Assembly: GCF_001598795.1 (NCBI RefSeq)
Contig: NZ_BCZP01000003.1
Coordinates: forward strand, 352,602 to 384,601
Length of the DNA: 32,000 nt
Direction of reading: 5' to 3'
Source: Delftia acidovorans NBRC 14950
Lineage (GTDB): Bacteria > Pseudomonadota > Gammaproteobacteria > Burkholderiales > Burkholderiaceae_C
Part shown: positions 3,180-27,200 of the stretch, piece after piece
How the letters are laid out: each line of letters begins with the position of its first letter
How positions within the stretch are numbered: the first letter of the stretch is position 1
The notes under the pieces: model-generated
Told to the model about the DNA's origin: nothing
The model's database searches: none
Seen by the model: the letters and a program-made list of their open reading frames with translations, nothing else
Program-made: the position numbers and the translations under genes

Positions 3180-3857
3180 ATGGAGACTTCCACCACCAGT
3201 TTCATTGTCGAGAGCCTGACCCGGGCCATCGTCGAACACCGTCTTCTGCCCGGCACCAAGCTGGCCGAGCAGAAATTGGCAGACCATTTCGGCGTCTCGC
3301 GCACCCTGGTGCGCCAGGCGCTGTTCCAGCTGTCGCAAAACCGCCTGATCCGGCTCGAACCCGCGCGCGGGGCCTTCGTGGCCACGCCCTCGGTGGACGA
3401 GGCGCGCCAGGTCTTCGCCGTGCGCCGCATGCTCGAAGCCGAGATGGTGCGCGCCTTCATCGCCCAGAGCACGCCGGCCAAGATCCGCGCGCTGCGGCAG
3501 CATGTGGCGGCCGAGAAAAAGGCCATGGACGGCAACGACGTCGGCCAGCGCACCGAGCTGCTGGGCGACTTCCACGTGCGCATGGCCGAACTCATGGGCA
3601 ACGAGGTGCTGGCCCAGCTGCTGGGCGAGCTGATCTCGCGCTGCGCGCTGATCACGCTGATGTACCAGTCCAGCACGGCCGCCGAGCATTCCCATGACGA
3701 GCATGCCGAAATCGTCACGGCCCTGGCCGGCGGCGACGCCGACCACGCCGTGCAGCTCATGCAGCAGCACCTGGACCACGTGGAAGCCGGCCTGACCTTC
3801 GACCGCGACATGCCGACCAGCGATCTTTCGATGGCCCTTTCCTCCGTATCCGCATGA
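3180..3857 (+). CDS. GntR-family transcriptional regulator (FadR/FCD subfamily), first gene of the purine-catabolism operon
   Basis: wHTH: LLPGTKLAEQKLADHFGVSRTLVRQALFQLSQNRLIRLEPARGAFVA, followed by a helical FCD-like domain (FHVRMAELMGNEVL, HDEHAEIV). Its stop overlaps the puuE start (ATGA at 3854..3857). Confidence 0.9.
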   Translation: METSTTSFIVESLTRAIVEHRLLPGTKLAEQKLADHFGVSRTLVRQALFQLSQNRLIRLEPARGAFVATPSVDEARQVFAVRRMLEAEMVRAFIAQSTPAKIRALRQHVAAEKKAMDGNDVGQRTELLGDFHVRMAELMGNEVLAQLLGELISRCALITLMYQSSTAAEHSHDEHAEIVTALAGGDADHAVQLMQQHLDHVEAGLTFDRDMPTSDLSMALSSVSA

Positions 3858-4810: not shown

Positions 4811-4816
4811 CGCAGC

Positions 4817-6592: not shown

Positions 6593-7881
6593 CCGACATG
6601 AACCAAGACAAGCAAGCCACCTACGCCGCCCTGGACGCCTGGATCGACCAGCATTTCGATGAAGAGGTGCAATTCCTGCAGGCCCTGGTCCAGGTTCCGA
6701 CCGACACCCCGCCCGGCAACAACGCCCCCCACGCCGAGCGCACGGCCGAGCTGCTCAAGACCCTGGGCTACGAGGCCGAGAAGCACACCGTGCCCGAGGC
6801 CGAGGTCAAGGCCTACGGCATGGAATCCATCACCAACCTGATCGTGCGCCGCCCCTATGGCAGCGCAGGTGACGCCGGCGGCGGCCTGACCATTGCGCTG
6901 AACGCCCACGGCGACGTGGTGCCGCCCGGTGAAGGCTGGACCCAGGACCCCTATGGCGCCGCCATCGAGGACGGCAAGCTCTACGGCCGCGCCGCCGCCG
7001 TGAGCAAGAGCGACTTCGCCACCTTCACCTACGCCGTGCGTGCGCTCGAAGCCGTGGCCCGGCCCTCCAAGGGCGCGGTGGAACTGCACTTCACCTATGA
7101 CGAGGAATTCGGCGGCATCCTGGGCCCCGGCTGGCTGCTGGCCAACAACCTCACCCAACCCGACCTGATGGTCGCGGCCGGCTTCAGCTACGAAGTCGTC
7201 ACCGCCCACAACGGCTGCCTGCAGATGGAAGTGACCGTGCAGGGCAAGATGGCCCACGCCGCCGTGCCCCACACGGGCGTGGACGCGCTGCAGGCCGCCG
7301 TGGTGCTGATGAATGCGCTGTACGCCGAGAACACCAAGTACCAGCAGGTGACCTCCAAGGTGCCGGGCATCAAGCACCCCTACCTGAACATCGGCCGCAT
7401 CGAAGGCGGCACCAACACCAACGTGGTGCCCGGCAAGGTCGTGCTCAAGATCGACCGCCGCATGATCCCCGAGGAGAACCCGGCCGAGGTCGAGGCCAGC
7501 ATCCGCGCCGTCATCGCCCAGGCCATTGCCGACTTCAACGCCAAGGGCGGCTACACGGGCGAGGATGCCGTGCGCGTGGACATCAAGCGCCTGCTGCTGG
7601 CCAATGCCATGACGCCGCTGGCGGGCAACAAGCCCCTGGTGGACGCCATCCAGGCCCATGGCGAAGCCGTGTTCGGCGAAAAGCCCCCGGCCGTGGGCAC
7701 GCCGCTGTACACCGACGTGCGCCTGTACGTGGAGCGCGGCATTCCCGGCGTGATCTACGGCGCCGGCCCGCGCACCGTGCTGGAGTCCCATGCCAAGCGC
7801 GCCGACGAGCGCCTGGTGCTGGAGGACCTGCGCCGCGCCACCAAGGTCATCGCGCGCATGCTGTGCGACCTGACGGCCTGA
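6589..7881 (+). CDS. M20-family metallohydrolase (ArgE/DapE/ACY1/CPG2-like deacylase), last gene of the purine operon
   Basis: The real start is MTDMNQDKQ at 6589 (ATGA overlap with the allC stop at 6589..6592). The track ORF 6349..7881 has an Arg/Pro-rich artefactual N-terminal extension. Motifs: ALNAHGDVVPPGEGWTQDPYGAAIEDGKLYGRAAA, HFTYDEEFGG, GKMAHAAVPHTGVDA, GGTNTNVVPGK. Confidence 0.85.
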   Translation: MTDMNQDKQATYAALDAWIDQHFDEEVQFLQALVQVPTDTPPGNNAPHAERTAELLKTLGYEAEKHTVPEAEVKAYGMESITNLIVRRPYGSAGDAGGGLTIALNAHGDVVPPGEGWTQDPYGAAIEDGKLYGRAAAVSKSDFATFTYAVRALEAVARPSKGAVELHFTYDEEFGGILGPGWLLANNLTQPDLMVAAGFSYEVVTAHNGCLQMEVTVQGKMAHAAVPHTGVDALQAAVVLMNALYAENTKYQQVTSKVPGIKHPYLNIGRIEGGTNTNVVPGKVVLKIDRRMIPEENPAEVEASIRAVIAQAIADFNAKGGYTGEDAVRVDIKRLLLANAMTPLAGNKPLVDAIQAHGEAVFGEKPPAVGTPLYTDVRLYVERGIPGVIYGAGPRTVLESHAKRADERLVLEDLRRATKVIARMLCDLTA

Positions 7882-7900
7882 CCGCCTGACCGCCTGACGG
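7869..7900 (+). repeat. Four tandem copies of the octamer CCTGAC(G/C)G spanning the stop codon of the M20 gene
   Basis: Read directly: cctgacgg cctgaccg cctgaccg cctgacgg. TGA triplets at 7871, 7879, 7887 and 7895 fall in all three frames. Confidence 0.85.
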
Positions 7901-7924
7901 CCCGCATCAAGGCACGACACCCAA

Positions 7925-7947
7925 GCCCGGCGCCGCCGGGCTTTTTT
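7925..7947 (+). terminator. Rho-independent terminator of the purine-catabolism operon
   Basis: GCCCGGC-gcc-GCCGGGC (7-bp GC stem, 3-nt loop) followed by TTTTTT (7942..7947). Confidence 0.7.
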
Positions 7948-8190
7948 GCGCCCGGGCACCGCATCGGGGTGCATGCACCGCCGCAGCCCATGCCGTGCTC
8001 CAGAGCCGCGCACGAACCGCGCCCAAGCCGCGCCAAGCCGCGCGGTAGCGGCCGCCAGGCACCAGCACGGTGCCTGGTGCTTGCCAGGCGGCTGGCATCC
8101 ATCTTGCAATGCACCATGGCACTCCCGCCCTGGCAGGCGTTGCGCACCAAAACGGGTTGGCGCGACTGCCGCAACAGGGTTTACCGGGAG

Positions 8191-8224
8191 CAGAAACTTC
8201 CCATGATCTGTATACACTTTTTGT
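8191..8224. promoter_or_regulatory. Second copy of the candidate GntR operator, upstream of the nucleobase permease (CAGAAACT-N9-CTGTATACA-CTTT-TTGT)
   Basis: CTGTATACA at 8208..8216, TTGT at 8221..8224 (same N4 spacing as at 3141..3157) and CAGAAACT at 8191..8198. Lies about 70-100 nt upstream of the ATG at 8293. Confidence 0.45.
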
Positions 8225-8292
8225 ATGGATGTTGGCGCCGAACCCTGCCACGCCGGCGTCCGTTCCCATAAATCCCGAGGAGACAAATCCCC

Positions 8293-9780
8293 ATGCAATC
8301 TTCCGTTCATCCCGTCGATGAGATGCTGCCCGCAGGCAAGCTCACGGCGCTGGGCCTGCAGCACGTTCTCGTGATGTATGCGGGCGCCGTGGCCGTGCCC
8401 CTGATCGTCGGCCGCGCACTCAACCTGCCGCCCGAGCAGGTGGCCCACCTGATCTCGGCCGACCTGTTTTGCTGCGGCCTGATCACGCTGATCCAGGCCA
8501 TGGGCGCCACCCAGTGGTTCGGCATCAAGCTGCCCGTGATGATGGGCGTGACCTTCGCCAGCGTGGCGCCCATGGTGTCCATGGCGCAGAGCACGGGCGG
8601 CTCGGCGGGGGCGGGGCTGATCTTCGGCTCGGTGATCGGGGCGGGGATCGTGTCCATCCTCATCGCCCCGCTGATCAGCCGCATGCTGCGCTTTTTCCCG
8701 CCCGTGGTGACCGGCACCATCATTGCCGTCATCGGCATCAGCCTGATGCGCGTGGGCGTGAACTGGATCTTCGGCAACCCCGTCGGCCCCACCGCTCCCA
8801 GCGTGCCCAACCCCGAGCACCTGAAATGGCTGGCCGACGCCCAGGCCACGGCCGGCGCGCCGGGCTCCTCGCTGCCGCCCGTGCCCAAGGGTTTCGCGGT
8901 CGTGCCCACCATTCCCAACCCCAAGTACGGCGACCTGACCGGCGTGGGCATCTCGGCCATCGTGCTGCTGTCCATCCTGCTGATCGCGCGCTTTGCCAAG
9001 GGCTTCCTGGCCAACGTCTCGGTGCTCATGGGCATCCTGATCGGCGGCGTGCTGTCCGTGGCCATGGGCCTGATGGACTTCAGCAAGGTCGCCAAGGCCG
9101 AATGGTTCACGATGGTGCTGCCCTTCGAGATCGCCACGCCGGTGTTCGACCCCATCCTCATCCTCACCATGAGTCTGGTGATGGTGGTGGTGATGATCGA
9201 GTCCACCGGCATGTTCCTGGCCCTGGGCGACATGACCGATCGCAAGATCAGCCAGGACGAGCTGACACGCGGCCTGCGCACCGACGGCCTGGGCACGCTG
9301 ATCGGCGGCATCTTCAACACCTTCCCCTACACCAGCTTCTCGCAGAACGTGGGCCTGGTCGCCGTCACCGGCGTCAAGAGCCGCTGGGTCTGCGTGGCCG
9401 GCGGCGTGATCCTGATCGTGCTGGGCGTGCTGCCCAAGATGGGCGCCCTGGTCGAGTCCCTGCCCACCGTGGTGCTGGGCGGCGCGGGCCTGGTGATGTT
9501 CGGCATGGTGGCCTCCACCGGCATCCGCATCCTGAGCAACGTGGATTTCCAGACCAATCGCAACAACGCCATGATCGTCGCCGTGTCCATCGGCGTGGGC
9601 ATGATTCCGCTGGTGGCGCCGAATTTCCGCCAATGGATGCCCCACGGCATTCATCCGTTGATCGAATCCGGTATCCTGCTGGCCTCGATTACCGCGGTGG
9701 CATTGAACATTTTCTTCAACGGAGCCAGCAGCGATACCTCTGCTGCCGTCCGGGCCGCACGCCAGGCAGACGCCCACTGA
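8293..9780 (+). CDS. NCS2-family nucleobase:cation symporter (xanthine/uric acid permease type)
   Basis: GLQHVLVMYAGAVAVPLIVGRAL, multiple TM segments, FSQNVGLVAVTGVKSRWV. GAGGAG RBS at 8277..8282. Adjacent to purine-catabolism genes. Confidence 0.9.
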   Translation: MQSSVHPVDEMLPAGKLTALGLQHVLVMYAGAVAVPLIVGRALNLPPEQVAHLISADLFCCGLITLIQAMGATQWFGIKLPVMMGVTFASVAPMVSMAQSTGGSAGAGLIFGSVIGAGIVSILIAPLISRMLRFFPPVVTGTIIAVIGISLMRVGVNWIFGNPVGPTAPSVPNPEHLKWLADAQATAGAPGSSLPPVPKGFAVVPTIPNPKYGDLTGVGISAIVLLSILLIARFAKGFLANVSVLMGILIGGVLSVAMGLMDFSKVAKAEWFTMVLPFEIATPVFDPILILTMSLVMVVVMIESTGMFLALGDMTDRKISQDELTRGLRTDGLGTLIGGIFNTFPYTSFSQNVGLVAVTGVKSRWVCVAGGVILIVLGVLPKMGALVESLPTVVLGGAGLVMFGMVASTGIRILSNVDFQTNRNNAMIVAVSIGVGMIPLVAPNFRQWMPHGIHPLIESGILLASITAVALNIFFNGASSDTSAAVRAARQADAH

Positions 9781-12364: not shown

Positions 12365-12452
12365 GGAGACTTGGGTGAGCGGTTTAAACCAGCAGTCTTG
12401 AAAACTGCCGACGGGCAACCGTCCGTGAGTTCGAATCTCACAGTCTCCGCCA
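12365..12452 (+). tRNA. tRNA-Ser (anticodon UGA), class II with long variable arm, CCA encoded
   Basis: GGAGACT...AGTCTCC acceptor stem. Anticodon stem-loop GCAGT-CTTGAAA-ACTGC. Variable arm CGACGGGCAACCGTCCG. T-arm GTGAGTTCGAATCTCAC. Closely parallels my recollection of E. coli tRNA-Ser(UGA). Confidence 0.92.
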
Positions 12453-15691: not shown

Positions 15692-15751
15692 GGCTCATAT
15701 TCTCCTGGACATGTGATCTGAGTTTTTACTCGTATTTGAAAGGGAATGCAC

Positions 15752-16960
15752 ATGTCTTCCGGAATTTCGCCATCCGCGGCCGCGTCGCCGCCGGTGAACG
15801 CATTCGCGCGGCTGCTGCCGCTGACGCTGGCGGTCTTCGTCAGCTTTCTCTGCCTGGGCATGCCCATGCCCGTGCTGCCCCTGCACCTGAGCCAGACCCT
15901 GGGACTGGGCACGCTGGGCGTGGGCACGGTGATGGGCTGCCAGTTCGCGGCGGCCCTGCTGTCGCGGGCCTGGGCCGGCTCTCTGGCCGACACGCGCGGC
16001 GCCAGGCGTGCCGTGGTGCTGGGTATGTTGCTGGCCGCCGCTTCGGGCGTGGCCTACCTGATGTCCCGCGCCTTCGAGGGCGGACAGGCCGCAGTCTGGG
16101 TGCTGGCCGCCGGCCGCGTGATGCTGGGCTGCGCCGAGAGCCTGATCATCACCGGCGCCCTGAGCTGGGGCATGGGAATGATCGGCCCGCAACATGCCGG
16201 CAAGGTGATGGCCTGGGTGGGCATTGCCATGTACGGCGCCTATGCGGCGGGCGCGCCGGCCGGCGTGGCAGTGCAGGCGGCCTGGGGCTTCTCGGGCATT
16301 GCCGTGGCCACCATCGTGCTGCCGCTGGCCGCCCTGGTCATGGTCTGGGGCCTGCGCGCCACGCCGGCTGCGGCCCAGCGCCGCACACCGTTCTACAAGG
16401 TGCTGGGCACGGTGTGGCTGCCCGGCCTGGGGCTGGCCCTGTCCAGCGCGGGCTTTGGCGTGATCACCACTTTTGCGGCGCTGCTGTTCGCGTCGCGCGG
16501 GTGGGGCGCGGCCTCGCTGGCCTTCACGGCCTTCGGCCTGGCCTTCATCGGGGCGCGTTTGTTCTTCGGCCATCTGCCTGACAAGCTGGGTGGCGTGCGG
16601 GTGGCGCTGGCCAGCATTCCGCTGGAGGCGGCGGGCCTGCTGCTGATTTGGGGCGGCGGCGATGCGGCCTGGGCCTATGCGGGAGCCGCACTCACCGGCT
16701 TCGGCTATTCGCTGGCCTTCCCGGCCTTCGGCGTGGAGGCCGTCCGCCGTGCGCCACCCCAGGCGCGCGGTGCGGCCATGGGCGCCTATGTGGCCTTCTT
16801 CGACCTGTCCATGGGATTGACGGCCCCCGCCGCCGGGCTGCTGGCCAGTGTCACGGGCGTCGGAGACGTGTATTTCGCCGCCGCCGTGAGCGTGGCCCTG
16901 TCCATTGCCGTGGCCCTGCTGCTGCGCGTGAACGCAGCCCGGGGAGCCTCCCATGGCTGA
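15752..16960 (+). CDS. MFS transporter (YhhS/arabinose-efflux-like, 12 TM). ORF opens at 15746; ATG at 15752 has the better RBS spacing.
   Basis: Hydrophobic throughout, with MFS loop motif LADTRGARRAV. AGGGA at 15741..15745 abuts the 15746 ATG but is 6 nt from the 15752 ATG. Confidence 0.85.
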   Translation: MSSGISPSAAASPPVNAFARLLPLTLAVFVSFLCLGMPMPVLPLHLSQTLGLGTLGVGTVMGCQFAAALLSRAWAGSLADTRGARRAVVLGMLLAAASGVAYLMSRAFEGGQAAVWVLAAGRVMLGCAESLIITGALSWGMGMIGPQHAGKVMAWVGIAMYGAYAAGAPAGVAVQAAWGFSGIAVATIVLPLAALVMVWGLRATPAAAQRRTPFYKVLGTVWLPGLGLALSSAGFGVITTFAALLFASRGWGAASLAFTAFGLAFIGARLFFGHLPDKLGGVRVALASIPLEAAGLLLIWGGGDAAWAYAGAALTGFGYSLAFPAFGVEAVRRAPPQARGAAMGAYVAFFDLSMGLTAPAAGLLASVTGVGDVYFAAAVSVALSIAVALLLRVNAARGASHG

Positions 16961-17735
16961 GCCGCTTCACACCCCCGCCGGCACGCAGCGCGCCCTGGGC
17001 ACCGTGGTGAACGTGCAGTCCATCACCCCGCGCATGCGCCGCATCACGCTGGGCGGCGAGCAGATTGCCGCCTTCTCGCGAGCGCCCGCAGCGGATGCGC
17101 CCGCTGCCTGGGTCAAGCTGTTCCTGCCGTCCGGCGAAGGCCGGGCCTATACGCTGCGCAGCGTGGACCGCCAGGCCGGCACGCTGGACATTGACCTGGT
17201 GCTGCATGGCGATGCATTCAATGCCAAGCATGAGAACAACACCTCCGCTGGCGGCGACGGCCCTGCCTCCCGCTGGGCCGCCCAGGCCCGCGTGGGCGAG
17301 CAGGTGGCCATTGCCGGCCCGCGCAGTGGCGGCTTCGCTCCACCGGCCGACACCGATTGGATGATGCTGGCAGGCGATGCATCGGCCCTTCCGGCCATGC
17401 AGTCCATCGCCGCGAGACTGCCGGCCTCCGCCCGGGTCAAGGCCTATGTGGAAATCGTCGACGACGGCGAATGCCAACCCATGGACAGCGCCGCCAACTG
17501 GCGCACCGAGTGGATCACCGCTGCGCCAGGCCAGCCCGGCCAGCCCGGCCAGAGGCTGTGCCAGCGGCTCATGTACCGGCCGCTGCCGCTGGGCATCGGC
17601 TATCTGTGGATGGCCGGCGAGTCCGGCGCCATGCGCACGTTGAAGATGCACTTCCTGGACCGTGGCATCGCCCGCACCCAGCTGAGCACCAAGGGCTACT
17701 GGAAATCCGGCGAGGCGGACCACAAGGATCGCTAG
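16953..17735 (+). CDS. Siderophore-interacting protein (SIP/ViuB-type FAD-binding ferric-siderophore reductase)
   Basis: RAYTLRS (RxYT FAD motif), GPASRWA, VAIAGPRSG, MLAGDASALPA, YLWMAGE, KGYWKSG. The start overlaps the MFS stop by 8 nt. Confidence 0.85.
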   Translation: MAEPLHTPAGTQRALGTVVNVQSITPRMRRITLGGEQIAAFSRAPAADAPAAWVKLFLPSGEGRAYTLRSVDRQAGTLDIDLVLHGDAFNAKHENNTSAGGDGPASRWAAQARVGEQVAIAGPRSGGFAPPADTDWMMLAGDASALPAMQSIAARLPASARVKAYVEIVDDGECQPMDSAANWRTEWITAAPGQPGQPGQRLCQRLMYRPLPLGIGYLWMAGESGAMRTLKMHFLDRGIARTQLSTKGYWKSGEADHKDR

Positions 17736-17764: not shown

Positions 17765-17867
17765 CCCCCCATCAACAGCGCCACATCCCCCGGGTAACCA
17801 CCCGGACGCGGGATGCAGGCGCTCACTAGAATCAAAAAATGAACTTTGACATCAACATTCAAATTCA

Positions 17868-19301
17868 ATGAAAACCAATGGCTGCCAGACGGCGCCTCCC
17901 TCGGCCTCCGAACTGCATGCGGCGTATGCAGCCGGCACGCTGACGCCCATGCAAGCCACGGAGCACTGCCTGCGGGTGGCCTGCGCAAGCCAGTCCGTGT
18001 TCACGCGCATCACGGCGGACCGCGCGCTCGAAGAGGCCCGGCAGTCCACGGAGCGCTGGCGCGCGGGCCGGCCGCTGGGGCCGCTGGACGGCATCCCCAT
18101 CAGCTGGAAGGACTTGTTCGACGTGCGCGGCACGCCGACCACGGCGGCCTCGGCCCTGCTGCAGTCGGCCGCGCCAGCCCGGGCCGACGCCACCGTGGTA
18201 GCGCGTGCCGCAGCGGCCGGCATGGTCTGCCTGGGCAAGACCAATCTCAGTGAGTTCGCCTACTCGGGCCTGGGGCTCAATCCCTGCTTCGGCACGCCGG
18301 TGTTTGCACATGAGGGAGGCCACGACCGGGCGCCCGGAGGCTCGTCCAGCGGCGCTGCGCTGGCCGTGGCCCTGGGGTGCGGGCCGCTGGCCATGGGCAC
18401 GGACACGGCGGGGTCCGTGCGCATTCCCGCCGCCTTCAACGGGCTGGCGGGCTATCGCGCCAGCAGGGGGCGCTATTGCCTGCAGGGCGTGTTTGCGCTG
18501 GCGCCGTCCCTGGACACCCTGGGGCCGCTGGCCCTGAGCGTGGCCGACTGCATGGCGCTGGACCGCGTGCTGCGCGGGCTGACCGACGACGGCCATGCCA
18601 ACGCATCCCCTGCCGCGGACCTGCGCAATCAGGTGTTCTGCACGGACCTCAGCCTGCTGGATGACGACCGCGTGCAAGCTCCCGTGCGCAACAACCTCCT
18701 GTCCTCCCTGGCCTTGCTGGAGACCCGGGGTGCCCGCGTGGAGCGCCGCACGCTGCGCAGCCTGCGCGCCGTACGGACGCTGACCCGGCGCCATGGCTGG
18801 CTGGGTGCCCATGAAGCCTTTGCCACCCACCGCGCACGCCTGGACGATGCCGATCAGGCCGCACGCATGGACCCGCGCGTGCGCCAGCGCCTGGAGGCGG
18901 CCAGGAATCTGAGTCCTGACAGCTACCGGACATTGATCGCCCAGCGCGCACCACTGATGGCCTTGTTCGCGCAGGAGCTGGGCGATGCCACCCTGGTGCT
19001 GCCCACCACGGGCCACACCGCACCCCTGCTGCTGCCGCTGCTGGACGACGACAGGCTGTTTGCCGAAACCAACCTCGCCACGCTGCGGCTGACCATGCCC
19101 GGCAGCTACCTGGACACGCCGGCCGTGGCCCTGCCCAGCGGCGTGCAGCGCATTCCCGGCCTGGACGGCAGGCCTGCGTTTCTGCCCACGGGCCTGCAGC
19201 TCATGCGCCCCCGGGGCGATGACGACCGGCTGCTGCGCATTGCGCTGAGCGTCGAACAGGTTCTTTCCCCCTCCACCGTTCCCATTGATAGGAGTGCATG
19301 A
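17868..19301 (+). CDS. Amidase-signature (AS) family amidohydrolase
   Basis: [16 protein letters not shown] (catalytic Lys context), [47 protein letters not shown]: the Ser-cisSer-Lys signature region. Confidence 0.88.
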
Positions 19302-19302
19302 C

Positions 19303-20178
19303 ATGAGCAAGGAAATCCAGATCACGTTTGGCGTGGACGTCGATGCCGTCGGCGGCTGGCTCGGTTCGTATGGCGGGGAGGACTCGCCCGACGACATCTC
19401 GCGCGGAATGTTCGCGGGCGAGGTCGGCTCGCTGCGGCTGCTCAAGCTGTTCCACAAATACGGCCTGAAGACCACCTGGTTCATTCCGGGCCACTCCGCC
19501 GAAACCTTTCCCGAGCAGATGAAGGCCGTGGTGGACGCGGGCCACGAAATCGGCATCCACGGCTACAGCCATGAGAACCCGATTGCCATGACGCCCGAGC
19601 AGGAAGAGGCCGTGCTGGACCGCAGCATCGAAGTCATCACGCGGCTGGCCGGCCGCGCGCCCACGGGCTACGTCGCTCCGTGGTGGGAATTCAGCCCGGT
19701 CACCAACGAGCTGCTGCTCAAGAAAGGCATCAAGTACGACCACAGCCTGATGCACAACGACTTCCACCCGTACTACGTGCGCGTGGGCGACCAGTGGACG
19801 CGCATCGACTACAGCAAGCATCCAGACACCTGGATGAAACCCCTTGTGCGCGGCAAGGAGACACGGCTGGTCGAGATCCCCGCCAACTGGTATCTGGACG
19901 ACCTGCCGCCCATGATGTTCATCAAGAAGTCGCCCAACAGCCACGGTTTCGTCAACCCGCGCGACATAGAGCAGATGTGGCGCGACCAGTTCGACTGGGT
20001 CTACCGCGAGCACGACTACGCGGTCTTCCCCATCACCATCCACCCCGATGTCTCCGGCCGCCCCCAGGTGCTGCTGATGCTGGAACGCCTGATCGAGCAT
20101 TTCCAGTCGCATGAGGGCGTGCGCTTCATGACGTGCGACCAGATCGCCGACGACTTCCTGCGCCGCCAGCCGCGTTGA
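19303..20178 (+). CDS. Polysaccharide-deacetylase-fold (CE4/PuuE-like) hydrolase, 291 aa; candidate cyclic amide/imide hydrolase
   Basis: [65 protein letters not shown] at 19291..19294. The start lies 1 nt after the amidase stop. Track ORF 19285 start rejected. Confidence 0.85.
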
Positions 20179-20206: not shown

Positions 20207-21652
20207 ATGAATACCTCCGCCATTGCCTCCGACGCCCCAGGCGCCGGCCATCCGGCCCCGGCCGGGATCGATGCCCCCTGGACCGCGCCCACCGTGACGC
20301 GCAGACAGGTCAGCTACGCCACCTGGGTCTGCTTTTTCGCCTGGGTGTTCGCCGTCTACGACTTCATCCTCTTCGGCACCCTGCTGCCGCAGCTGGGCGA
20401 GCACTTCCAGTGGAGCGCCGAGCAGCAGGCGCGCCTGAACACCTGGGTGACGCTGGGCACGGTGATCGTGGCCTTCGGCATCGGCCCCATCGCCGACCGG
20501 CTGGGCCGGCGCAAGGGCATCATCATCGCCGTGGCGGGCGCCGCGCTGTGCTCGGGACTGACAGCGCTGGCCGGCTGGGTGATCGGCCTGTCGGCGGGCC
20601 TGGGCTTCGTGCTGCTGATCGTGGTGCGCTCGCTGGCGGGCCTGGGCTATGCCGAGCAAAGCATCAACGCCACCTACCTGAGCGAGCTGTTCTCCCTGGT
20701 CTATACCGACCCGGCCTCGCTGCGGCGGCGTGGCTTCATCTACTCGCTGGTGCAGGGCGGCTGGCCCGTGGGCGCCGTGCTCACCGCCGTGCTGGTGGCC
20801 CTGCTGTATCCGCTGGGCGAGCGCTGGTTCGGCCAGGGCGGCGGCTGGGCGCTGTCCTTCGTGTTCGCCATGTTCCCGGCCCTGGTGATCGCCGTGCTGG
20901 GCCGCCGGCTGGTAGAGACGCCCCAGTTCCTGACCGCGCGGCGCGTGGCCGATCTGCGCCGCGCCGGGCGCGAGGCAGAGGCCATGCGCCTGGCTCAGGA
21001 GCATGGCGCCAGCCCACAGCAGGAGCAGCACACCGGCCTGTCGGCCATGTTCCGCGGTGCCTCGCTGCGGCCCACGCTGTCGCTGGCCCTGGGCTTTTTC
21101 CTGAACTGGTTCGCCATCGTGATCTTCGCGGTGCTGGGCACCTCGGTGCTGGGCGGCGCCGGCGGCACGCCGGGCAAGGGCGTGGATTTCTCCAGTGCGC
21201 TGCAGGTGCTCATCATCTCCAATCTCGCGGGCTTTCTGGGCTATGTCTTCCATGGCTGGCTCGGTGACCGCATAGGCCGGCGCAACGCCGTGGCCATCGG
21301 CTGGATGCTGGGTGGCCTGGCCTTCGCGCTCATGCTGAACGCGCCCTCGGGCGACTTCTGGCGCATCGTGCCGCTGTACTCGCTGGGGCTGTTCTTCCTG
21401 ATCGGCCCCTATGCAGCCGCCCTGTTCCTGATCGGCGAGAGCTTTCCCAGCCACATCCGTGCCACGGCCAGCTCCTTCGTCAACGCCATGGGCCAGGTGG
21501 GCGCCATCGCGGCAGGCTTTGGCGTGACCTGGACGCTTTCGCAGGGGGCGGACTGGGTGCAGGCGGCGCTGTACTGGGGCGCCATTCCCTGCGCGGCCTC
21601 GGGCCTGCTGATGTTTCTGGCGCCCCATGTCGATCCCGAGACCGTGAAGTGA
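20207..21652 (+). CDS. MFS transporter (metabolite:H+ symporter-like)
   Basis: GPIADRLGRRKG (MFS motif A), 12 predicted hydrophobic spans, second-half motif GWLGDRIGRRN. GAGGA RBS. Confidence 0.88.
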   Translation: MNTSAIASDAPGAGHPAPAGIDAPWTAPTVTRRQVSYATWVCFFAWVFAVYDFILFGTLLPQLGEHFQWSAEQQARLNTWVTLGTVIVAFGIGPIADRLGRRKGIIIAVAGAALCSGLTALAGWVIGLSAGLGFVLLIVVRSLAGLGYAEQSINATYLSELFSLVYTDPASLRRRGFIYSLVQGGWPVGAVLTAVLVALLYPLGERWFGQGGGWALSFVFAMFPALVIAVLGRRLVETPQFLTARRVADLRRAGREAEAMRLAQEHGASPQQEQHTGLSAMFRGASLRPTLSLALGFFLNWFAIVIFAVLGTSVLGGAGGTPGKGVDFSSALQVLIISNLAGFLGYVFHGWLGDRIGRRNAVAIGWMLGGLAFALMLNAPSGDFWRIVPLYSLGLFFLIGPYAAALFLIGESFPSHIRATASSFVNAMGQVGAIAAGFGVTWTLSQGADWVQAALYWGAIPCAASGLLMFLAPHVDPETVK

Positions 21653-21659
21653 GGCCGAC

Positions 21660-22436
21660 ATGAACCCGGACACCCCCAGCAACAAGGTGGCCCTCGTCAC
21701 GGGCGCCGCCAGCGGCATCGGCCAGGCGCTGGCCGTGGCCTATGCGCAGGCAGGCATTGCCGTGGCCGGCAGCTACTACCCCCGGGATCCGCACGATCCC
21801 GGCCAGACCCTGGAACTCGTCGAACGCGCGGGCGGGCGGTGCGTCATGGAGGCGGTCGATGTGGGCGATGCCGAACAGGTCGAGCACCTGGCCCGGGTCG
21901 CCGTGGACCGCTTCGGCCGGCTGGACTTCGCCGTCGCCAATGCGGGTTTGCTGCGCCAGGCGGCCCTGGTCGAGATGAGCGATGCGCAGTGGCTGGAGGT
22001 CATCAACATCGACCTGGGCGGCGTGATGCGCACCTTCCGGGCCAGTGCGCGCCACATGGCTGCAGGCGGGGCCATGGTGGCTGTCTCCTCCATTGCAGGC
22101 GGCGTCTACGGCTGGGAGCAGCATGCCCACTATGCGGCCGCCAAGGCAGGCGTGCCCGGGCTGTGTCGTTCCGTGGCCATGGAGCTGGCACCGCGCGGCA
22201 TACGCTGCAATGCCGTGATCCCCGGCCTGATCGAGACGCCGCAATCGCTGGACCCGGTCAACTCGCTGGGGCCGGATGGCCTGGCGCTGGCGGCCAGGGG
22301 CATCCCGCTGGGACGCGTGGGGCAGGCCCGCGAAATCGCCGCCCTGATCCGCTTCCTGACCAGCGACGAGGCTTCCTACATCACCGGCCAATCCATCATT
22401 GCCGACGGCGGCCTGACCGTGCGCTGGCCCAGTTGA
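21660..22436 (+). CDS. Short-chain dehydrogenase/reductase (SDR, FabG-like)
   Basis: VALVTGAASGIGQA (TGxxxGxG), NAG, SSIAG...YAAAKAG (YxxxK), PGLIETP. Confidence 0.9.
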   Translation: MNPDTPSNKVALVTGAASGIGQALAVAYAQAGIAVAGSYYPRDPHDPGQTLELVERAGGRCVMEAVDVGDAEQVEHLARVAVDRFGRLDFAVANAGLLRQAALVEMSDAQWLEVINIDLGGVMRTFRASARHMAAGGAMVAVSSIAGGVYGWEQHAHYAAAKAGVPGLCRSVAMELAPRGIRCNAVIPGLIETPQSLDPVNSLGPDGLALAARGIPLGRVGQAREIAALIRFLTSDEASYITGQSIIADGGLTVRWPS

Positions 22437-22447
22437 GGACATCCGAC

Positions 22448-23206
22448 ATGAACACCTCCAAGCCCCTGGACGGCCGCCGCGCCGTCGTGACAGGCGCCGG
22501 CAGCGGCATCGGCGAGGCCATCGCCCTGGCCTATGCGCAGGCCGGCGCGCAGCTGTTGCTGGCCGACATCGATGCCGCCCGCGCCGACAGCGTGGCCCGG
22601 CGCTGCCGCGCTCTGGGCGCGCAGGCCGAGACCGTCATCGGCGACGTGGGCGACGAGTCCACGGCCCACCGCATCGTCGACCGCTGCGTGCAGGCCTTTG
22701 GCGGCATCGACATCCTGGTGAACAACGCCGGCATGCTCACCCAGTCGCGCTGCGCCGACATGTCCACCGCGATGTGGGACGAGATGCTGCGCGTGGACCT
22801 GCGCAGCGTCTTCCTGTGCGCGCGGCGCGCGGTGCCGCACATGCAGTCGCAGCGCTGGGGCCGCATCATCAACATCGCCTCGCAGCTGGGCATCAAGGGC
22901 GGCGTGGAACTGAGCCACTATGCGGCGGCCAAGGCCGGCGTGATCGGCTTCACCAAGTCGCTGGCGCTGGAAGTGGCACCCGACAATGTCCTGGTCAACG
23001 CCATTGCCCCCGGCCCCATCGCCACGCCGCTGGTCGATGGCATCAGCGCGGACTGGAAGCGCGCCAAGGAGGCCAGCCTGCCGCTGGGCCGCTTCGGCCG
23101 CGCCGACGAGGTGGCGCCCACGGCGGTGCTGCTGGCCTCCGATCCCGGTGGCAATCTGTATGTGGGGCAGACGCTGGGGCCCAACTCCGGCGATGTCATG
23201 CCGTGA
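22448..23206 (+). CDS. Short-chain dehydrogenase/reductase (SDR), second copy
   Basis: Real start MNTSKPLDGRRAVVTGAGSGIGEA at 22448 (GAGGA RBS); the track ORF 21839.. is an out-of-context extension. NNAG, ASQLG...YAAAKAG, PGPIATP. Confidence 0.9.
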   Translation: MNTSKPLDGRRAVVTGAGSGIGEAIALAYAQAGAQLLLADIDAARADSVARRCRALGAQAETVIGDVGDESTAHRIVDRCVQAFGGIDILVNNAGMLTQSRCADMSTAMWDEMLRVDLRSVFLCARRAVPHMQSQRWGRIINIASQLGIKGGVELSHYAAAKAGVIGFTKSLALEVAPDNVLVNAIAPGPIATPLVDGISADWKRAKEASLPLGRFGRADEVAPTAVLLASDPGGNLYVGQTLGPNSGDVMP

Positions 23207-23238
23207 AAAGAAGCACCCCCTGAGTCGCTTCGCGCCTT

Positions 23239-23258
23239 CCCCCTCTCTTCGGAGGGGG
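23239..23258 (+). other. GC hairpin in the 182-nt spacer between SDR genes and the COG0523 module
   Basis: CCCCCTC-tcttcg-GAGGGGG (7-bp stem), with no following T-run. Could be a weak terminator or RNA-stability element. Confidence 0.35.
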
Positions 23259-23388
23259 GCGTACGGGCAGCCGGCGACACCCTCGGTGCGGGGCGGCGCG
23301 GCCGGCATAGGCCCTTCCTCGGTGTCTCTGCTCTTTGGCTGCGCCAGTTTCGCAGGCGGCTCCATTCGCAACCGAAAGGGTTTCTGTC

Positions 23389-23742
23389 ATGTGTGGAATG
23401 TGCGGTTTGCTGCAGGCCTCCGGCCACTGGAGCCAGGCGCCGGCCGGATCGGCCGGGCGCCGCCAGCGGCTGATTCAGATTGCGCGCGCCAACCGGCTGC
23501 TGGCGCTGTGGCGGCTGCGGCTCAGCGACTTCCATGGCCAGTCCTATGTGCTGGCCGGCCCCACGGGGGCCAGCGTGCTGATTGCCGATTTCGGCGCGCT
23601 GTGGCCCGCCGCCGAACAGATGCTGGGCCGAGCCCTGGATCCGCTGGCCATGCCGTGGCAGCCGGCGCAGGCACAAGGGCAGGCACAAGATCGGGCACAA
23701 GGGCGGGCACCAGCGCAGGAACACAGGGAGCAGGTGCCATGA
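23389..23742 (+). CDS. Small hypothetical protein (117 aa) with N-terminal MCGMCG (CxxC) and Gln/Ala-rich tail
   Basis: ATG at 23389 preceded by AAAGGG (8-nt spacing); the track's TTG at 23335 is less likely. The stop overlaps the start of the GTPase gene (ATGA at 23739..23742). No family recognised. Confidence 0.55.
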   Translation: MCGMCGLLQASGHWSQAPAGSAGRRQRLIQIARANRLLALWRLRLSDFHGQSYVLAGPTGASVLIADFGALWPAAEQMLGRALDPLAMPWQPAQAQGQAQDRAQGRAPAQEHREQVP

Positions 23743-24839
23743 GCGGCCTGACGGACCACCACGGCGAGCGGCTGCCCGTAGGCGTGCTCACGGGCTTTCT
23801 GGGCAGCGGCAAGACCACGCTGCTCAGGCAGTGGCTGCAGGACTCGCCCGCGGGCGAGACTGCGGTGCTCATCAACGAATTCGGGGCCGTGGGGCTGGAC
23901 CATCTGCTGGTGGGCCGCGTAGACGCCGACACGGTGCTGCTGGACAACGGCTGCGTCTGCTGCGCCATACGCGGCGAACTCAAGGACGCTTTGTGGCGCC
24001 TGCACCAGCGCCGCCTGCGCGGCGAGCTGCCGCCTTTTCAAAGGGTGCTGATGGAGACCACGGGGCTGGCCGCGCCCGGCCCCGTGATCGCCACCCTGAT
24101 CGGCGATGCGCAGCTGCGCCAGATCTTCAGGCCGGCCTTCATCTCCACCGTGGTCGATGCACTGCATGCCCCGTGGCAACAGTCCCGGCGCCCCGAATGG
24201 CTGGCCCAGGTCGCGGCGGCCGACCGGCTGTACCTGAGCAAGACCGACCTGGCCACGCCACAGCAGGCCCAGGCACAGCGCGCGCAACTGGCGCAGATCA
24301 ATCCCCTGGCCAGCATCGTCACCTGCGGCCCTGGCGCAGCGGTACCGCCTGCCTGGCAAATGCAGGAATCCCATGCCCTGCAAACCGATTGGCTGGCACG
24401 CGCCATTGCCGGCACGCCGCGCGGCCGCACGGGCCAGCGCCAGGGCCAGGGCCAGGGTCTGCACGCAGGCGCCCAGGCGTTCTGCCTGGAACTTGACAGC
24501 CCGGTGGACTGGTGCGTGCTCACCCTGTGGCTGACCATGCTGCTGCACCGCCATGGCGACCGGCTGCTGCGTCTGAAGGGACTGGTGGCCGTGGCCGCGG
24601 ATGGCTGGCCGCAGGGGCAGCCCACGGCGCTGCACGGCATGGGCCATCTCATGCACGCCCCCGAGCACTTGCCCGAGTGGCCGGGCGAGGACAGGCGCTC
24701 TCGCCTGGTCTTCATCACGGCCGGGCTCGATGAGCAGCAGGTCAGGGCCTCCTGGCAATCGTTCCAATCGTTCTACCGCCTCCACTCGCAGGACAATGGC
24801 AGCCAGACCCCGGCAAGCCCCTCACCCCACACTGCGTGA
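23739..24839 (+). CDS. COG0523 / CobW-type G3E-family GTPase (putative metallochaperone)
   Basis: VGVLTGFLGSGKTTLL (Walker A), NEFG, GCVCCAIRGEL (CxCC metal motif), METTGLA, LSKTDL, and a CobW_C-like C-terminus (RLKGLVAV...LHGMGHLMH...RLVFI). Track ORF 22986.. is an artefactual extension. Confidence 0.9.
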   Translation: MSGLTDHHGERLPVGVLTGFLGSGKTTLLRQWLQDSPAGETAVLINEFGAVGLDHLLVGRVDADTVLLDNGCVCCAIRGELKDALWRLHQRRLRGELPPFQRVLMETTGLAAPGPVIATLIGDAQLRQIFRPAFISTVVDALHAPWQQSRRPEWLAQVAAADRLYLSKTDLATPQQAQAQRAQLAQINPLASIVTCGPGAAVPPAWQMQESHALQTDWLARAIAGTPRGRTGQRQGQGQGLHAGAQAFCLELDSPVDWCVLTLWLTMLLHRHGDRLLRLKGLVAVAADGWPQGQPTALHGMGHLMHAPEHLPEWPGEDRRSRLVFITAGLDEQQVRASWQSFQSFYRLHSQDNGSQTPASPSPHTA

Positions 24840-24862
24840 ACCTCCACGGCAAGGACCGCAAC

Positions 24863-26053
24863 ATGCGCAAGAACGATCCCGAACTGCGTGTCCTCGGCAC
24901 CTCGGTGACGCTGACCGAAGCCCTGCGCCAGCGTGCGCAGCAGGACCTGGGCATACGCATCCATTTCGAGGTGCTGGACGGCTTCGACGCCCAGCGCCAG
25001 GCCGTGATGCGCCAGGACAGCTTCGACCTGTACGACCAGTGGTTCCACAGCGTGGATTTCCTGTGGCCCACCGGCACCCTGCAGCCCATCGACACGGCGC
25101 GCCTGACCTGTTGGGACGAGGTCAACGCCCTGCCCCGCACCGGCCGCATCACGCCACAGGCGGCCTTTGGCGCGGGCTGCAATCCTGTCACGCGCCTGTA
25201 TGTGCAGGCCGATGGCAGCGTCAGCGATGTGCCCAGCGCGCATATCTCCATGCTGCCGCTCACGCACAACGTCGACAGCTTTGTCTACCTGCCCGCCGCC
25301 CTGCCCGCGCTGTTCGACCAGGCCGAGGAAAGCTGGTCCTGGCTGGTCTCCCCCGCCTGCCGAGGGCGTGCTGCGCTGCAGGCCGATGCCGCCATCGGCG
25401 CGCTGGACGCGGCCCTTGCCCTGCAGGCCAGCGGCGACATGCGTTTCGGCGACATCAGCAACCTGGGGCTGGAGGAAATCGACCGGATGATGGCCGTGCT
25501 GCTGCAGCGGCAGGAGTCCGAGCAGTTCAGGGGCTTCTGGGGCAACTACGCCGATGCGGCACGGCTGATGATCGATGCAGGCGTTGCCATCCAGAGCCAC
25601 TGGTCGCCGGCCATGGGCCACTACCGCGCGGCGGGACTGGACTACCGCCTGGCCTGTCCGCGCGAAGGCTACCGCGCCTGGTACGGCGGTCTGGGCATCT
25701 CCAGCCAGGCCAGGGGCGACACGCTGGACGCCGCCTACCGCTACCTGAACTGGTGGCAATCCGGCTGGCCCGGTGCCGCGATGGCGCGGCAGGGCTACTA
25801 CATCTCCAACCCGCTGCGCACGCGCGAGCACCTGAGCGCCAGCGAATGGGACTACTGGTACGCCGGCCTGCCCGCCGCCGAAGACCTGCAGGGCACCGAC
25901 GGCCAGCTCGTGGTCCCGCGCGGCAGCGTGCGCGACGGCGGCTCCTACGAGCAGCGCCTGGGCCGCATCGCCGTCTGGAACACCGTCATGGACGAGCACA
26001 ACTACCTGGTGCGCCAGTGGGCCACGCTGCTGCGCCGTGCGCGCGCCGTATAG
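24863..26053 (+). CDS. PotD/PotF-like type-II periplasmic-binding-protein-fold protein lacking any signal peptide (predicted cytoplasmic, orphan)
   Basis: LRVLGTSVTLTEAL...IRIHFEVLDGFDAQRQAVMRQDSFDLYDQWFHSV...LQPID and AYRYLNWWQSGWPGAAMARQGYYISNP align by eye with polyamine-type SBPs. AAGGA RBS 7 nt before the ATG at 24863. The ORF opens at GTG 24836, immediately after an in-frame stop, so no leader peptide is possible. Confidence 0.8.
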   Translation: MRKNDPELRVLGTSVTLTEALRQRAQQDLGIRIHFEVLDGFDAQRQAVMRQDSFDLYDQWFHSVDFLWPTGTLQPIDTARLTCWDEVNALPRTGRITPQAAFGAGCNPVTRLYVQADGSVSDVPSAHISMLPLTHNVDSFVYLPAALPALFDQAEESWSWLVSPACRGRAALQADAAIGALDAALALQASGDMRFGDISNLGLEEIDRMMAVLLQRQESEQFRGFWGNYADAARLMIDAGVAIQSHWSPAMGHYRAAGLDYRLACPREGYRAWYGGLGISSQARGDTLDAAYRYLNWWQSGWPGAAMARQGYYISNPLRTREHLSASEWDYWYAGLPAAEDLQGTDGQLVVPRGSVRDGGSYEQRLGRIAVWNTVMDEHNYLVRQWATLLRRARAV

Positions 26054-26085
26054 TCCTGCCCGATGACGGCCCCCGCTGGCGGCGG

Positions 26086-26111
26086 CACACGCACACGCAC
26101 ACGCACACGCA
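26086..26111. repeat. Hexanucleotide microsatellite (CACACG) x4.3 in the intergenic region upstream of the GntR gene
   Basis: Read directly: cacacg cacacg cacacg cacacg ca. Ends 12 nt before the ATG at 26124. Confidence 0.9.
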
Positions 26112-26123
26112 GATGAAGCAGGA

Positions 26124-27200
26124 ATGAGAAGAGCCATACAAGCATCCACGCAGACTGCGCGGGACGAAGAGACCGGCGAGAGCGGCGAATCTGGCGATTC
26201 CGAGCGCCGGCTGCGCTATGAACTGATACGCCAGCGCCTGCGCCAGGCCATCGTCGAGCAGCGGGTGGCGCCCGGCCTGGTGCTGCTGGAGGGGCCCGTG
26301 GCCAAGGTCTTCGGCACCAGCCGCATTCCCGTGCGCAAGGCCTTCGAGCTGCTGCATGCCGAAGGGCTGCTGAGCACCTTCGACGGACGCGGCTACCTGG
26401 TCGCCCGGCCCGGGCAGGCCGTGCAGCCCCAGCGCCTGACACTGGACGCGCAGGCCCTGGGCCTGGAGGCGGGCCAGGCCACGATCCACATTCCATCGGA
26501 GAGCGAGCGCATCCACGACGAGCTGGAGCAGTCCATCTCCATCGCCATGATCTTCGGGCGCTTTCAGATCGATGAGAGCGCCGCCATGGACCACTTCAAC
26601 GTCAACCGCGTGGCCCTGCGCGAGGTGCTGAGCCGGCTGGTAGATAGAGGGCTGGTGGAGAAAAGCACCTACGCCGCCTGGCGGGTGGCCGCGCTGACGG
26701 CACGCGCGGTGAATCAGGACTTCGAGCTGCTCGCCTTGCTGGCGCCCGCAGCGCTGCGCGAAAGCGGGCCGCGCCTGGACAGAGACATGCTCGCCAGCCT
26801 GCGCCACGGCCTGCAAGGCGCGACGGCGCCGGGTGTTCCGGACACGCAGGAAACATTGCGCCCGGAACAGCGCCTGGAACAGCGCGTGGAGCAGCACCTG
26901 CATGGCGACTTCCTGGCCCGGCATCCCAACGACAAGCTGGTGGGCATGCTGCAGCAGTGCCAGATGCCCTGGCTGATCCACAGCACCTTCTGCCGCATGT
27001 TTCCGCAATCGCCCAACCCGCCGCTGACCGAGAACTGCCGGCAGATCGTCGATGCCTTGTGGGAGGGGGAGTACGAGCGGGCCGCACAGGCGCTGCAGGA
27101 CTATCTGGCCCAGGCGCGCAAGCGCGCCCAGCTTCAGCTCAAGGTGCTGGCCGTGCTGCCTGAGACGCAGCTGCCCGCCTACCTGGTGCGGCAGACCTGA
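26124..27200 (+). CDS. Atypical GntR-family regulator with two tandem winged-helix modules followed by an FCD-like helical domain (358 aa)
   Basis: wHTH 1: LRQAIVEQRVAPGLVLLEGPVAKVFGTSRIPVRKAFELLHAEGLLSTFDGRGYLVA. wHTH 2: ISIAMIFGRFQIDESAAMDHFNVNRVALREVLSRLVDRGLVEKSTYAAWRVA. Acidic N-terminal tail DEETGESGESGDSE. Confidence 0.85.
   Translation: MRRAIQASTQTARDEETGESGESGDSERRLRYELIRQRLRQAIVEQRVAPGLVLLEGPVAKVFGTSRIPVRKAFELLHAEGLLSTFDGRGYLVARPGQAVQPQRLTLDAQALGLEAGQATIHIPSESERIHDELEQSISIAMIFGRFQIDESAAMDHFNVNRVALREVLSRLVDRGLVEKSTYAAWRVAALTARAVNQDFELLALLAPAALRESGPRLDRDMLASLRHGLQGATAPGVPDTQETLRPEQRLEQRVEQHLHGDFLARHPNDKLVGMLQQCQMPWLIHSTFCRMFPQSPNPPLTENCRQIVDALWEGEYERAAQALQDYLAQARKRAQLQLKVLAVLPETQLPAYLVRQT

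Follow-up and report, generated by a model that had tools for sequence, protein, structure and literature searches.

Two candidate functional pairs, a metallochaperone and a cytoplasmic ligand sensor, at the end of a predicted cyclic-imide operon of Delftia acidovorans

According to a 2024 review, the only bacterial COG0523 metallochaperones with known clients are CobW and Nha3, the activator of nitrile hydratase. Within this family, subgroup 7 was defined by Haas et al. 2009 by co-localisation with genes for a GatA amidase, PotD, PotABC, a cyclic-imide hydrolase (CIH) and FabG, the members listed being PSPTO4198, PFL_1367, Veis_1001 and pRL120796. Here a locus of this type was analysed in a 32,000-nt stretch of the genome of Delftia acidovorans NBRC 14950 (contig NZ_BCZP01000003.1, positions 352,602 to 384,601; this whole stretch is called the window below), in which four consecutive genes encode a small protein starting with MCxxCG, a COG0523 G3E GTPase (gene cobW), a leaderless protein of polyamine-type binding fold (called SBPl here) and a GntR regulator with two winged helix-turn-helix (wHTH) modules (GntR2). 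Records of Delftia acidovorans give the four proteins no names beyond hypothetical, CobW-family GTP-binding, extracellular solute-binding and GntR protein. The GTPase gene clusters with genes for a GatA-type amidase, a CIH, FabG-type short-chain dehydrogenases (SDRs) and the PotD-like protein, the same context as in Haas subgroup 7, to which it therefore belongs. An earlier note on this DNA, made from the sequence alone, had taken the combination to be undescribed; it had in fact been catalogued in 2009 and noticed again by Shaik et al. 2011, both times without a function. The 2009 work catalogued the neighbourhood only, with the small gene unlisted, the PotD-like protein called periplasmic and no link to a client or a regulator proposed, and a literature search with the locus tags of its four listed members returned nothing. 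Shaik et al. 2011 reported that homologues of Helicobacter pylori HP0310 lie beside “polyamine importers” and that HP0310 was inactive on the substrates tested; acetyl-polyamines were tried, without success, because of these neighbours. The label “extracellular solute-binding protein”, attached to SBPl in Delftia records and to its homologues in other genera, misled this search for the HP0310 substrate.

Several better characterized systems resemble parts of the locus. Nha3 (P47K), the activator of Fe-type nitrile hydratase (NHase), is likewise a client-dedicated COG0523 GTPase encoded in an operon that makes or consumes amides, and its CxCC motif metalates a buried site; here, in contrast, the proposed client is an Asp-His-His hydrolase of CE4 fold rather than an NHase, and an extra small CxxC partner is encoded. 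A G3E GTPase encoded beside a small metal-ligand accessory protein is also known from UreE-UreG and HypA-HypB, although the small protein of the window shares neither sequence nor fold with UreE or HypA and its metal ligands would be Cys2 and Cys5 of an N-terminal tail. AmiC-AmiR and NasS-NasT are systems in which a cytoplasmic sensor of solute-binding protein (SBP) fold controls a regulator, AmiC being encoded in an amidase operon. They have in common with the present locus a leaderless binding-protein homologue whose gene lies beside that of its regulator, in the catabolic operon that it helps to control. Here, however, an ANTAR antiterminator is replaced by a DNA-binding GntR/FCD protein with two wHTH modules, the SBP belongs to the PotD/PotF (cluster D) type and natural fusions of SBPl with the regulator exist. 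With the polyamine-binding proteins PotD and PotF themselves SBPl shares the cluster D type II fold, but it has no export signal and no adjacent ATP-binding cassette (ABC) genes. As for the enzyme, the counterparts are HP0310 (‘PgdA’, PDB 3qbu) and the imidase CIH293 of P. putida YZ-26, and the CIH of the window keeps the metal and catalytic residues of HP0310; HP0310 is annotated as a peptidoglycan deacetylase, whereas the genes conserved around it point to a pathway for small-molecule imides. Judged against these systems, what appears to be new is the HP0311-like partner of the GTPase and the pairing of SBPl with a double-wHTH GntR regulator.

Comparison of the loci favours a division of the four genes into two functional pairs, a metallochaperone (small protein and GTPase) and a ligand sensor (SBPl and GntR2), to which we assign a probability of roughly 0.55. 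The block was divided in this way because the small and GTPase genes follow CIH without SBPl or GntR2 in H. pylori and at a metagenome locus (L109), and because distant cytoplasmic SBPl relatives follow GntR2, by adjacency or by fusion, without a COG0523 gene in the DNA examined; the H. pylori locus and the cobW-free fusions and adjacencies are its strongest support. The earlier note had put forward a single unit of CxxC protein, GTPase and binding-fold protein, which these loci split in two. As a client-specific, GTP-dependent metallochaperone system, the first pair would hold metal on the CxCC motif of the GTPase, with the flexible Cys2/Cys5 tail of the small protein helping to acquire it or hand it over, and would deliver it to the CIH encoded upstream, a tetramer whose Asp-His-His site is buried. 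The second pair would form a two-protein ligand sensor, in which SBPl may bind a substrate or inducer of the pathway within the cytoplasm and modulate GntR2, itself predicted to act at paired GTAC boxes immediately 5′ of the amidase gene. The transfer of metal to CIH and the identity of that metal, as well as ligand binding by SBPl, its contact with GntR2 and the nature of the substrate, are read here from sequence comparison, whereas gene content and synteny, the conservation of proteins and motifs, the fusions and the operator motif are seen in the sequences directly.

By gene content and order, the four genes are the tail of a widely conserved operon predicted to serve the catabolism of cyclic imides (or hydroxy-lactams). 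A scan of one genome per species gave at least 595 species genomes with an SBPl relative. In a tblastn survey of the window proteins against 82 loci, all anchored on SBPl, the other genes were recovered as follows: cobW at 77 loci, the small gene at 74, CIH at 73, the major facilitator superfamily (MFS) transporter at 74, the two SDRs at 73 and 76, GntR2 at 75 and the amidase at 64. Gene order was kept in at least 70 species-level genomes, and the full set (amidase-CIH-MFS-SDR-SDR-small-cobW-SBPl plus GntR) occurred together in Pseudomonas, Paraburkholderia, Variovorax, Halomonas, Brenneria and Acinetobacter, two P. syringae loci (L001 and L002) being syntenic with the window. The neighbourhood survey proposed in the earlier note thus found conserved co-occurrence well beyond near-identical genomes (73-77 of the 82 loci for most genes), and its idea that the block is dedicated to the adjacent amide/imide genes is borne out by this multi-genus co-occurrence together with a conserved operator 5′ of the amidase gene. 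No ABC genes were seen in the typical clusters of the survey, the MFS gene being there instead, and, as the earlier note had said of permease and ATPase genes, no ABC transporter component was encoded by the window open reading frames (ORFs) scanned. A low-GC cluster variant (L091, 2935-9221) lacks SDRs and has an NCS1 permease (cytosine/purine/hydantoin type) in place of the MFS protein.

The small and cobW genes overlap by their start and stop codons in the window, in P. syringae, in H. pylori and at L089 and L091, and in the P. syringae locus 4-nt overlaps occur at both the small/cobW and the cobW/SBPl junctions. In Halomonas the cluster is split and reordered, yet amidase, small, cobW and SBPl remain one block, with the amidase gene directly 5′ of the trio. 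Such contiguity, with translational coupling of the three genes in most clusters, and the joint movement of the Halomonas trio with the amidase gene speak for an alternative in which the small protein, GTPase and SBPl (as store, donor, adaptor or client) make up one three-protein metal-handling complex and GntR2 is just the operon regulator. H. pylori has the small protein, GTPase and CIH without SBPl, and L109 has the same order; distant cytoplasmic SBPl proteins without cobW adjoin or are fused to GntR2, or lie beside a histidine kinase. These loci speak against a single complex, which we regard as possible but unlikely.

The GTPase gave Pfam scores of 135 bits for cobW and 71 bits for CobW_C, and the motifs GFLGSGKTT, GCVCC (NGCVCC), ETTG and SKTD are all present, in agreement with its earlier identification as a G3E GTPase of the COG0523/CobW type. 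In an alignment of 15 orthologues, including that of H. pylori, the P-loop, ETTGLA and [ST]K[TAV]D were kept, and the metal motif GC[VIML]CC was invariant. Among NCBIfam models the best was of YjiA type, itself sub-threshold, and all scores were below the cut-offs (PRK11537 167 vs 361, CobW 103 vs 332, ZigA 82 vs 600); YjiA is also the nearest solved relative, and the C-terminus of the window GTPase aligns to its C-terminal domain. The 90%-identity database cluster of SBPl also holds 347-aa ‘GTP-binding protein’ members, which looks like a clustering artefact.

For the small protein no match was found in Pfam or NCBIfam, and a word-indexed protein search returned just 13 close relatives. Nevertheless it represents a real family of about 99 aa that extends from Delftia to Helicobacter, with variants of 94-121 aa among Delftia strains. 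Invariant positions in 13 aligned sequences were M1, C2, C5, G6, W14, R27, N35, D47, G60, W72, D84 and L86. The 125-aa HP0311 of H. pylori, which starts MCVLCG...HWSD, aligns over its full length with the Delftia protein. An AlphaFold2 (AF2) model showed an ordered core of a helix, three strands and a helix (residues 21-80, predicted local distance difference test (pLDDT) score about 90) and a disordered N-terminal Cys-x-x-Cys tail, and no PDB fold match was found for this model. On this alignment evidence the MCxxCG protein is a conserved unnamed family found together with the GTPase and CIH as far afield as H. pylori, and it would be a novel element, absent from the co-localising genes of Haas et al. 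2009. When metagenomes were searched with a degenerate DNA pattern for MCxxCG...HW, 52 stretches were obtained, mostly by chance, with cluster-protein matches only at L109 and at the frameshifted L127. L109 has the order CIH-small-cobW, with no SBPl or GntR2 match in the 5 kb downstream; its CIH and cobW matches are fragmented, which indicates an imperfect assembly.

The H. pylori locus (L083, CP078448.1, 5104-11337) is informative as to the partner of this pair. It comprises a CN_hydrolase gene, HP0310, a strain-specific insertion and HP0311 overlapping HP0312 (cobW), with the MFS gene HP0313 on the opposite strand, and it lacks SBPl, SDR and GntR2 genes. Since the amidase is replaced there by an unrelated CN_hydrolase, CIH is the constant neighbour of the small and cobW genes. 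This also bears on the suggestion that the GTPase and small protein serve the amidase, or general zinc homeostasis, and not CIH: many COG0523 proteins belong to Zur regulons and the Halomonas amidase gene lies directly 5′ of the trio, whereas in H. pylori the amidase is exchanged and CIH stays. Amidase-signature enzymes are, moreover, not known to be metalloenzymes, which counts against the amidase as a client. We consider this suggestion very improbable. The composition of the H. pylori mini-cluster further suggests that HP0310 acts in a small-molecule imide or amide pathway, not in a cell-wall role.

The assignment of the CIH is close. The Polysacc_deac_1 protein of the window matched HP0310 (PDB 3qbu) with E=1.5e-158 and about 75-78% identity, its orthologues are 81-92% identical across genera, and the HP0310 metal ligands Asp14, His86 and His90 are kept, as are D12 and His247. 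HP0310 is a tetramer; its active-site ion, assumed to be Zn, sits in a pocket that is hard to reach and is held by His86, His90 and Asp14. The fungal HxnM, an orthologue of the HP0310-type enzyme, is a proven cyclic-imide hydrolase, and in A. nidulans a hydroxy-piperidinedione is processed successively by an SDR (HxnW), a CIH (HxnM) and an amidase (HxnN). This order provides a chemical rationale for the SDR-CIH-amidase set of the window operon, where, by analogy, the MFS protein would import the substrate, the SDRs would oxidise a hydroxy-lactam to the imide, CIH would open the ring and the amidase would release ammonia. The industrial imidase BpIH was also considered and set aside, being a metal-independent enzyme of PuuE type and of another kind than the window CIH.

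SBPl had been described in the earlier note as a protein of polyamine-type binding fold for which a signal peptide is impossible, and both points held. Its only Pfam match was a sub-threshold one to SBP_bac_8 (26.5 bits against a cut-off of 27), while the family profile reached PotF at E=4e-7. The AF2 model, built with 14 sequences, was of moderate quality (pLDDT 64, residues 60-135 unreliable); with it Foldseek placed PotF and PotD at the top, and the ferric-binding protein 4elo had a TM-score near that of PotD. The N-terminus is polar and an in-frame 5′ extension enters the GTPase gene; in the leader check on orthologues that had been proposed, none of 14 showed a hydrophobic or twin-arginine (Tat) N-terminus. 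Close homologues, also without a leader, are encoded in many Proteobacteria. A profile search of 1.84 billion representatives yielded 1395 SBPl relatives, and most of the full-length ones examined carry Tat leaders (RRxFLK type), the cytoplasmic clade being separate. One Tat-leader paralogue, 36% identical, adjoins ABC permeases (L062 14366-15655, minus strand). From these relationships SBPl is best described as a leaderless offshoot of Tat-exported ABC binding proteins. The periplasmic relatives (L062, P0255, P0264-P0300) have Tat leaders, e.g. SRRTFIKG, which are unusual among ABC binding proteins.

Tat-leader paralogues next to ABC permeases, together with the listing of PotABC in some subgroup 7 clusters (Haas et al. 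2009), might be taken to mean that SBPl is the decayed remnant of an ABC importer whose leader and partners were lost, an outcome that the earlier note had named as counting against its hypothesis. With a relative in at least 595 species-level genomes and with the listed orthologues all intact, leaderless, strongly constrained and 52-72% identical to the window protein, decay is effectively ruled out. The conservation is indeed very high for a binding protein: across 14 orthologues, from different classes, mean column identity was 67% and more than 100 positions were invariant. This degree of constraint would suit a new enzyme built on the SBP scaffold, providing an extra pathway step and perhaps being a metal-dependent client of the GTPase as in amidase-NHase-Nha3 clusters, and the Halomonas amidase-small-cobW-SBPl order resembles the amidase/nitrile-hydratase/activator layout of Haas 2009 subgroup 2. 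On the other hand, SBPl shares most motifs with its nearest paralogues, which are common Tat-exported binding proteins of ABC systems, the H. pylori version of the pathway does without SBPl, and a sensor would better explain the fusions to GntR/FCD and the histidine kinase gene next to one relative, so that an enzymatic role seems improbable.

Other features of SBPl concern its possible ligand. The many invariant His, Tyr, Asp and Glu residues, the TM-score of 4elo and the inclusion of ferric-binding proteins in SBP cluster D are consistent with the three-protein metal-handling complex. A three-His metal site (H62, H135 and H379), invariant in orthologues and replaced in the Tat paralogue, was considered and dropped because these residues are not kept in the wider cytoplasmic clade, which weighs against that complex too. 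In a HMMER alignment the PotF motif ‘AWFD’ corresponds to ‘AWYG’ in SBPl, its Gly being invariant in the family; the residue replaced is Asp278 of the PotF WFD motif, the acidic residue that binds the amine.

The association of SBPl with the regulator is seen most directly in natural fusions. P0257, of 753 aa, joins a double-wHTH GntR/FCD protein to SBPl; it was found on at least five contigs, clustered with genes for a deacetylase, an SDR and hydantoinases and without a nearby cobW gene, and P0370 is a GntR+FCD+SBP_bac_8 fusion found on 2 contigs. Three further SBPl relatives (P0256, P0259 and P0261, at L086/87, L088 and L090, respectively) directly adjoin GntR2-type genes with no cobW on the contig DNA examined, which for P0261 (L090) is a short contig of 2.9 kb. 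In Burkholderia (L053) and Lonsdalea (L080/81) SBPl and GntR2 are kept, adjacent to each other in L053, without cobW or CIH. P0254 and P0262, by contrast with these cobW-free loci, show the cobW-SBPl arrangement. At another locus a leaderless relative, P0258 (L092 8001-11836), lies 3 nt upstream of a gene for an 887-aa hybrid histidine kinase, which may represent another signalling partnership of the leaderless clade. A full-text literature search for a cytoplasmic SBP acting as co-regulator of a GntR protein gave nothing relevant; the recurrent pairing and fusion of SBPl with a double-wHTH GntR protein points to a sensor design that was not found described there.

GntR2 itself scored 61 bits with Pfam GntR over two wHTH stretches, as expected from the earlier description of a GntR regulator with two winged-helix modules, and both modules are conserved in the GntR2 proteins of the window, the adjacency loci and the fusions. 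For FCD the score was 16.3 bits, below the threshold of 24.3; residues 127-333 align with the NanR model, and GntR2 orthologues with FCD matches are on record. The upstream regions of the operons share the motif AAATGTAC-N12/13-GTACATTT (GTAC boxes), which, with at most one mismatch, is present at about 45 loci in one or two copies between the GntR2 and amidase genes and matches at only two other places in about 1.5 Mb. Aligned with the Variovorax site (L004), the window copy shows the identical T-to-A change in both half-sites. The position of this motif supports control of the whole operon by GntR, through a predicted GTAC-box operator of GntR2 directly 5′ of the amidase gene. The same boxes bear on zinc homeostasis as the role of the first pair: the sole AT-rich palindromes found were those of the GntR-type operator, no dedicated Zur scan having been run, and they are placed and spaced like the operator of the cluster, unlike a Zur box, which is a contiguous palindrome.

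Several observations weigh against the division into two pairs. The strongest is that in CIH-type clusters SBPl is always directly 3′ of cobW, often with codon overlap, and that in Pseudomonas it stands at the end of the operon opposite GntR2; so constant a cobW-SBPl order would suit a partnership of these two proteins equally well. At L091 the small, cobW and SBPl genes stay together, but their only GntR2 counterpart is a single-wHTH relative of FCD type, a 227-aa protein that matches just the C-terminal ~65% of GntR2. Recombinant HP0310 from E. coli already carried its ion. The P. putida imidase is also reportedly active when expressed alone, and from both points a dedicated chaperone may not be strictly needed. 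The context counts for small and cobW, finally, come from loci anchored on SBPl, and the metagenome pattern matches were mostly chance.

A stronger, joint formulation of the two-pair division would have the HP0311-like protein as an obligate co-chaperone of a client-specific COG0523 GTPase, and leaderless SBPl with GntR2 as a new and widespread sensor, in which the copy of a transporter binding protein was re-used as a cytoplasmic inducer receptor, sometimes within one fused chain; this is offered tentatively, as its chances are somewhat below even. CIH is in any case a testable candidate for a third COG0523 client, with a solved structure (3qbu) and a dedicated small partner unlisted by earlier surveys, and the system occurs both in genetically tractable Pseudomonas and in H. 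pylori. If the metallochaperone proposal is true, CIH would be the first bacterial client to be defined for a COG0523 protein other than CobW and Nha3, and H. pylori ‘PgdA’ (HP0310) with HP0311-HP0313 and the CN_hydrolase would form an imide pathway and not a peptidoglycan deacetylase system. For plant-associated and soil bacteria, the operon is probably a route to cyclic imides or hydroxy-lactams as nitrogen sources.

The features of the operon in the window are collected in Table 1. The ORF positions, the ATGA overlap at 23739-23742, the 182-nt spacer after the second SDR gene and all other sequence features that the earlier note had described for the four-gene block were found as it gave them.

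Table 1. Position of the predicted operon, its putative operator and its four-gene tail in the window
Feature	Position	Strand	Basis or remark
Operator-like inverted repeat ATGAAC-N11-CATTCA, ATGAACTTTGACATCAACATTCA	17839..17861		7 nt 5′ of amidase start
Amidase of the amidase-signature family, probable half-amidase, at the start of the conserved operon	17868..19301	+	Pfam Amidase 220 bits; syntenic in 64/82 loci
Cyclic-imide hydrolase (CIH), HP0310/CIH293 type, CE4 fold, proposed chaperone client	19303..20178	+	E=1.5e-158 to PDB 3qbu
MFS transporter, probable substrate importer	20207..21652	+	Pfam MFS_1/Sugar_tr; syntenic in 74/82 loci
Short-chain dehydrogenase 1	21660..22436	+	Pfam adh_short_C2 211 bits; 73/82 loci
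Short-chain dehydrogenase 2	22448..23206	+	Pfam adh_short 194 bits; 76/82 loci
GC-rich 182-nt spacer with hairpin CCCCCTC-loop-GAGGGGG (23239-23259, CCCCCTCTCTTCGGAGGGGGG)	23207..23388		
Small MCxxCG protein, HP0311 family, 117 aa, proposed metal-binding GTPase partner	23389..23742	+	No Pfam match; orthologue alignment
COG0523 G3E GTPase, Haas subgroup 7, 366 aa, canonical CxCC site	23739..24839	+	Pfam; Haas 2009 supplement
SBPl, cytoplasmic PotD/PotF-fold protein, 396 aa, proposed ligand sensor	24863..26053	+	Family profile; Foldseek
GntR2, regulator with two wHTH modules and FCD-like domain, 358 aa	26124..27200	+	Pfam; NCBIfam

On the same strand 5′ of the four-gene block lie, in order of mention, genes for an MFS protein, a flavoprotein of siderophore-interacting protein (SIP) type, the amidase, the Polysacc_deac_1 protein, a second MFS protein and the two SDRs. 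In the spacer neither a sigma-70 nor a terminator consensus was found; it matches no Rfam family, has no copy elsewhere in the window, and its fold is ordinary (z=-1.8); in two other genera checked (L001 and L003) the gap between the second SDR gene and the small gene is about 17-23 nt, without a GC-rich insertion. Two Gln/Gly/Ala-rich low-complexity stretches of the Delftia proteins are absent from the orthologues of other genera: in the small protein the C-terminal AQGQAQDRAQGRAPAQ (window 23680-23739), and in the linker of the GTPase GQRQGQGQG (window 24390-24420). A (CACACG) repeat of about 4.3 units (window 26086-26111) lies within the 70-nt gap between the SBPl stop and the GntR start. 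The SIP-type FAD-binding gene (window 15746-17735) is directly upstream of, and overlaps, an MFS gene; such a gene is near the cluster at 15 of the 82 survey loci, most of them from the P. syringae group, in which PadR is its partner (L001 15888-16655). A tRNA gene at window 12365-12449 is the sole Rfam match in the window, and window 3180-9780 holds a separate ureide/purine catabolic cluster with a GntR-FCD regulator, a PuuE-type Polysacc_deac_1 protein, an OHCU-decarboxylase/M20 fusion, an M20 hydrolase and a xanthine/uracil permease.

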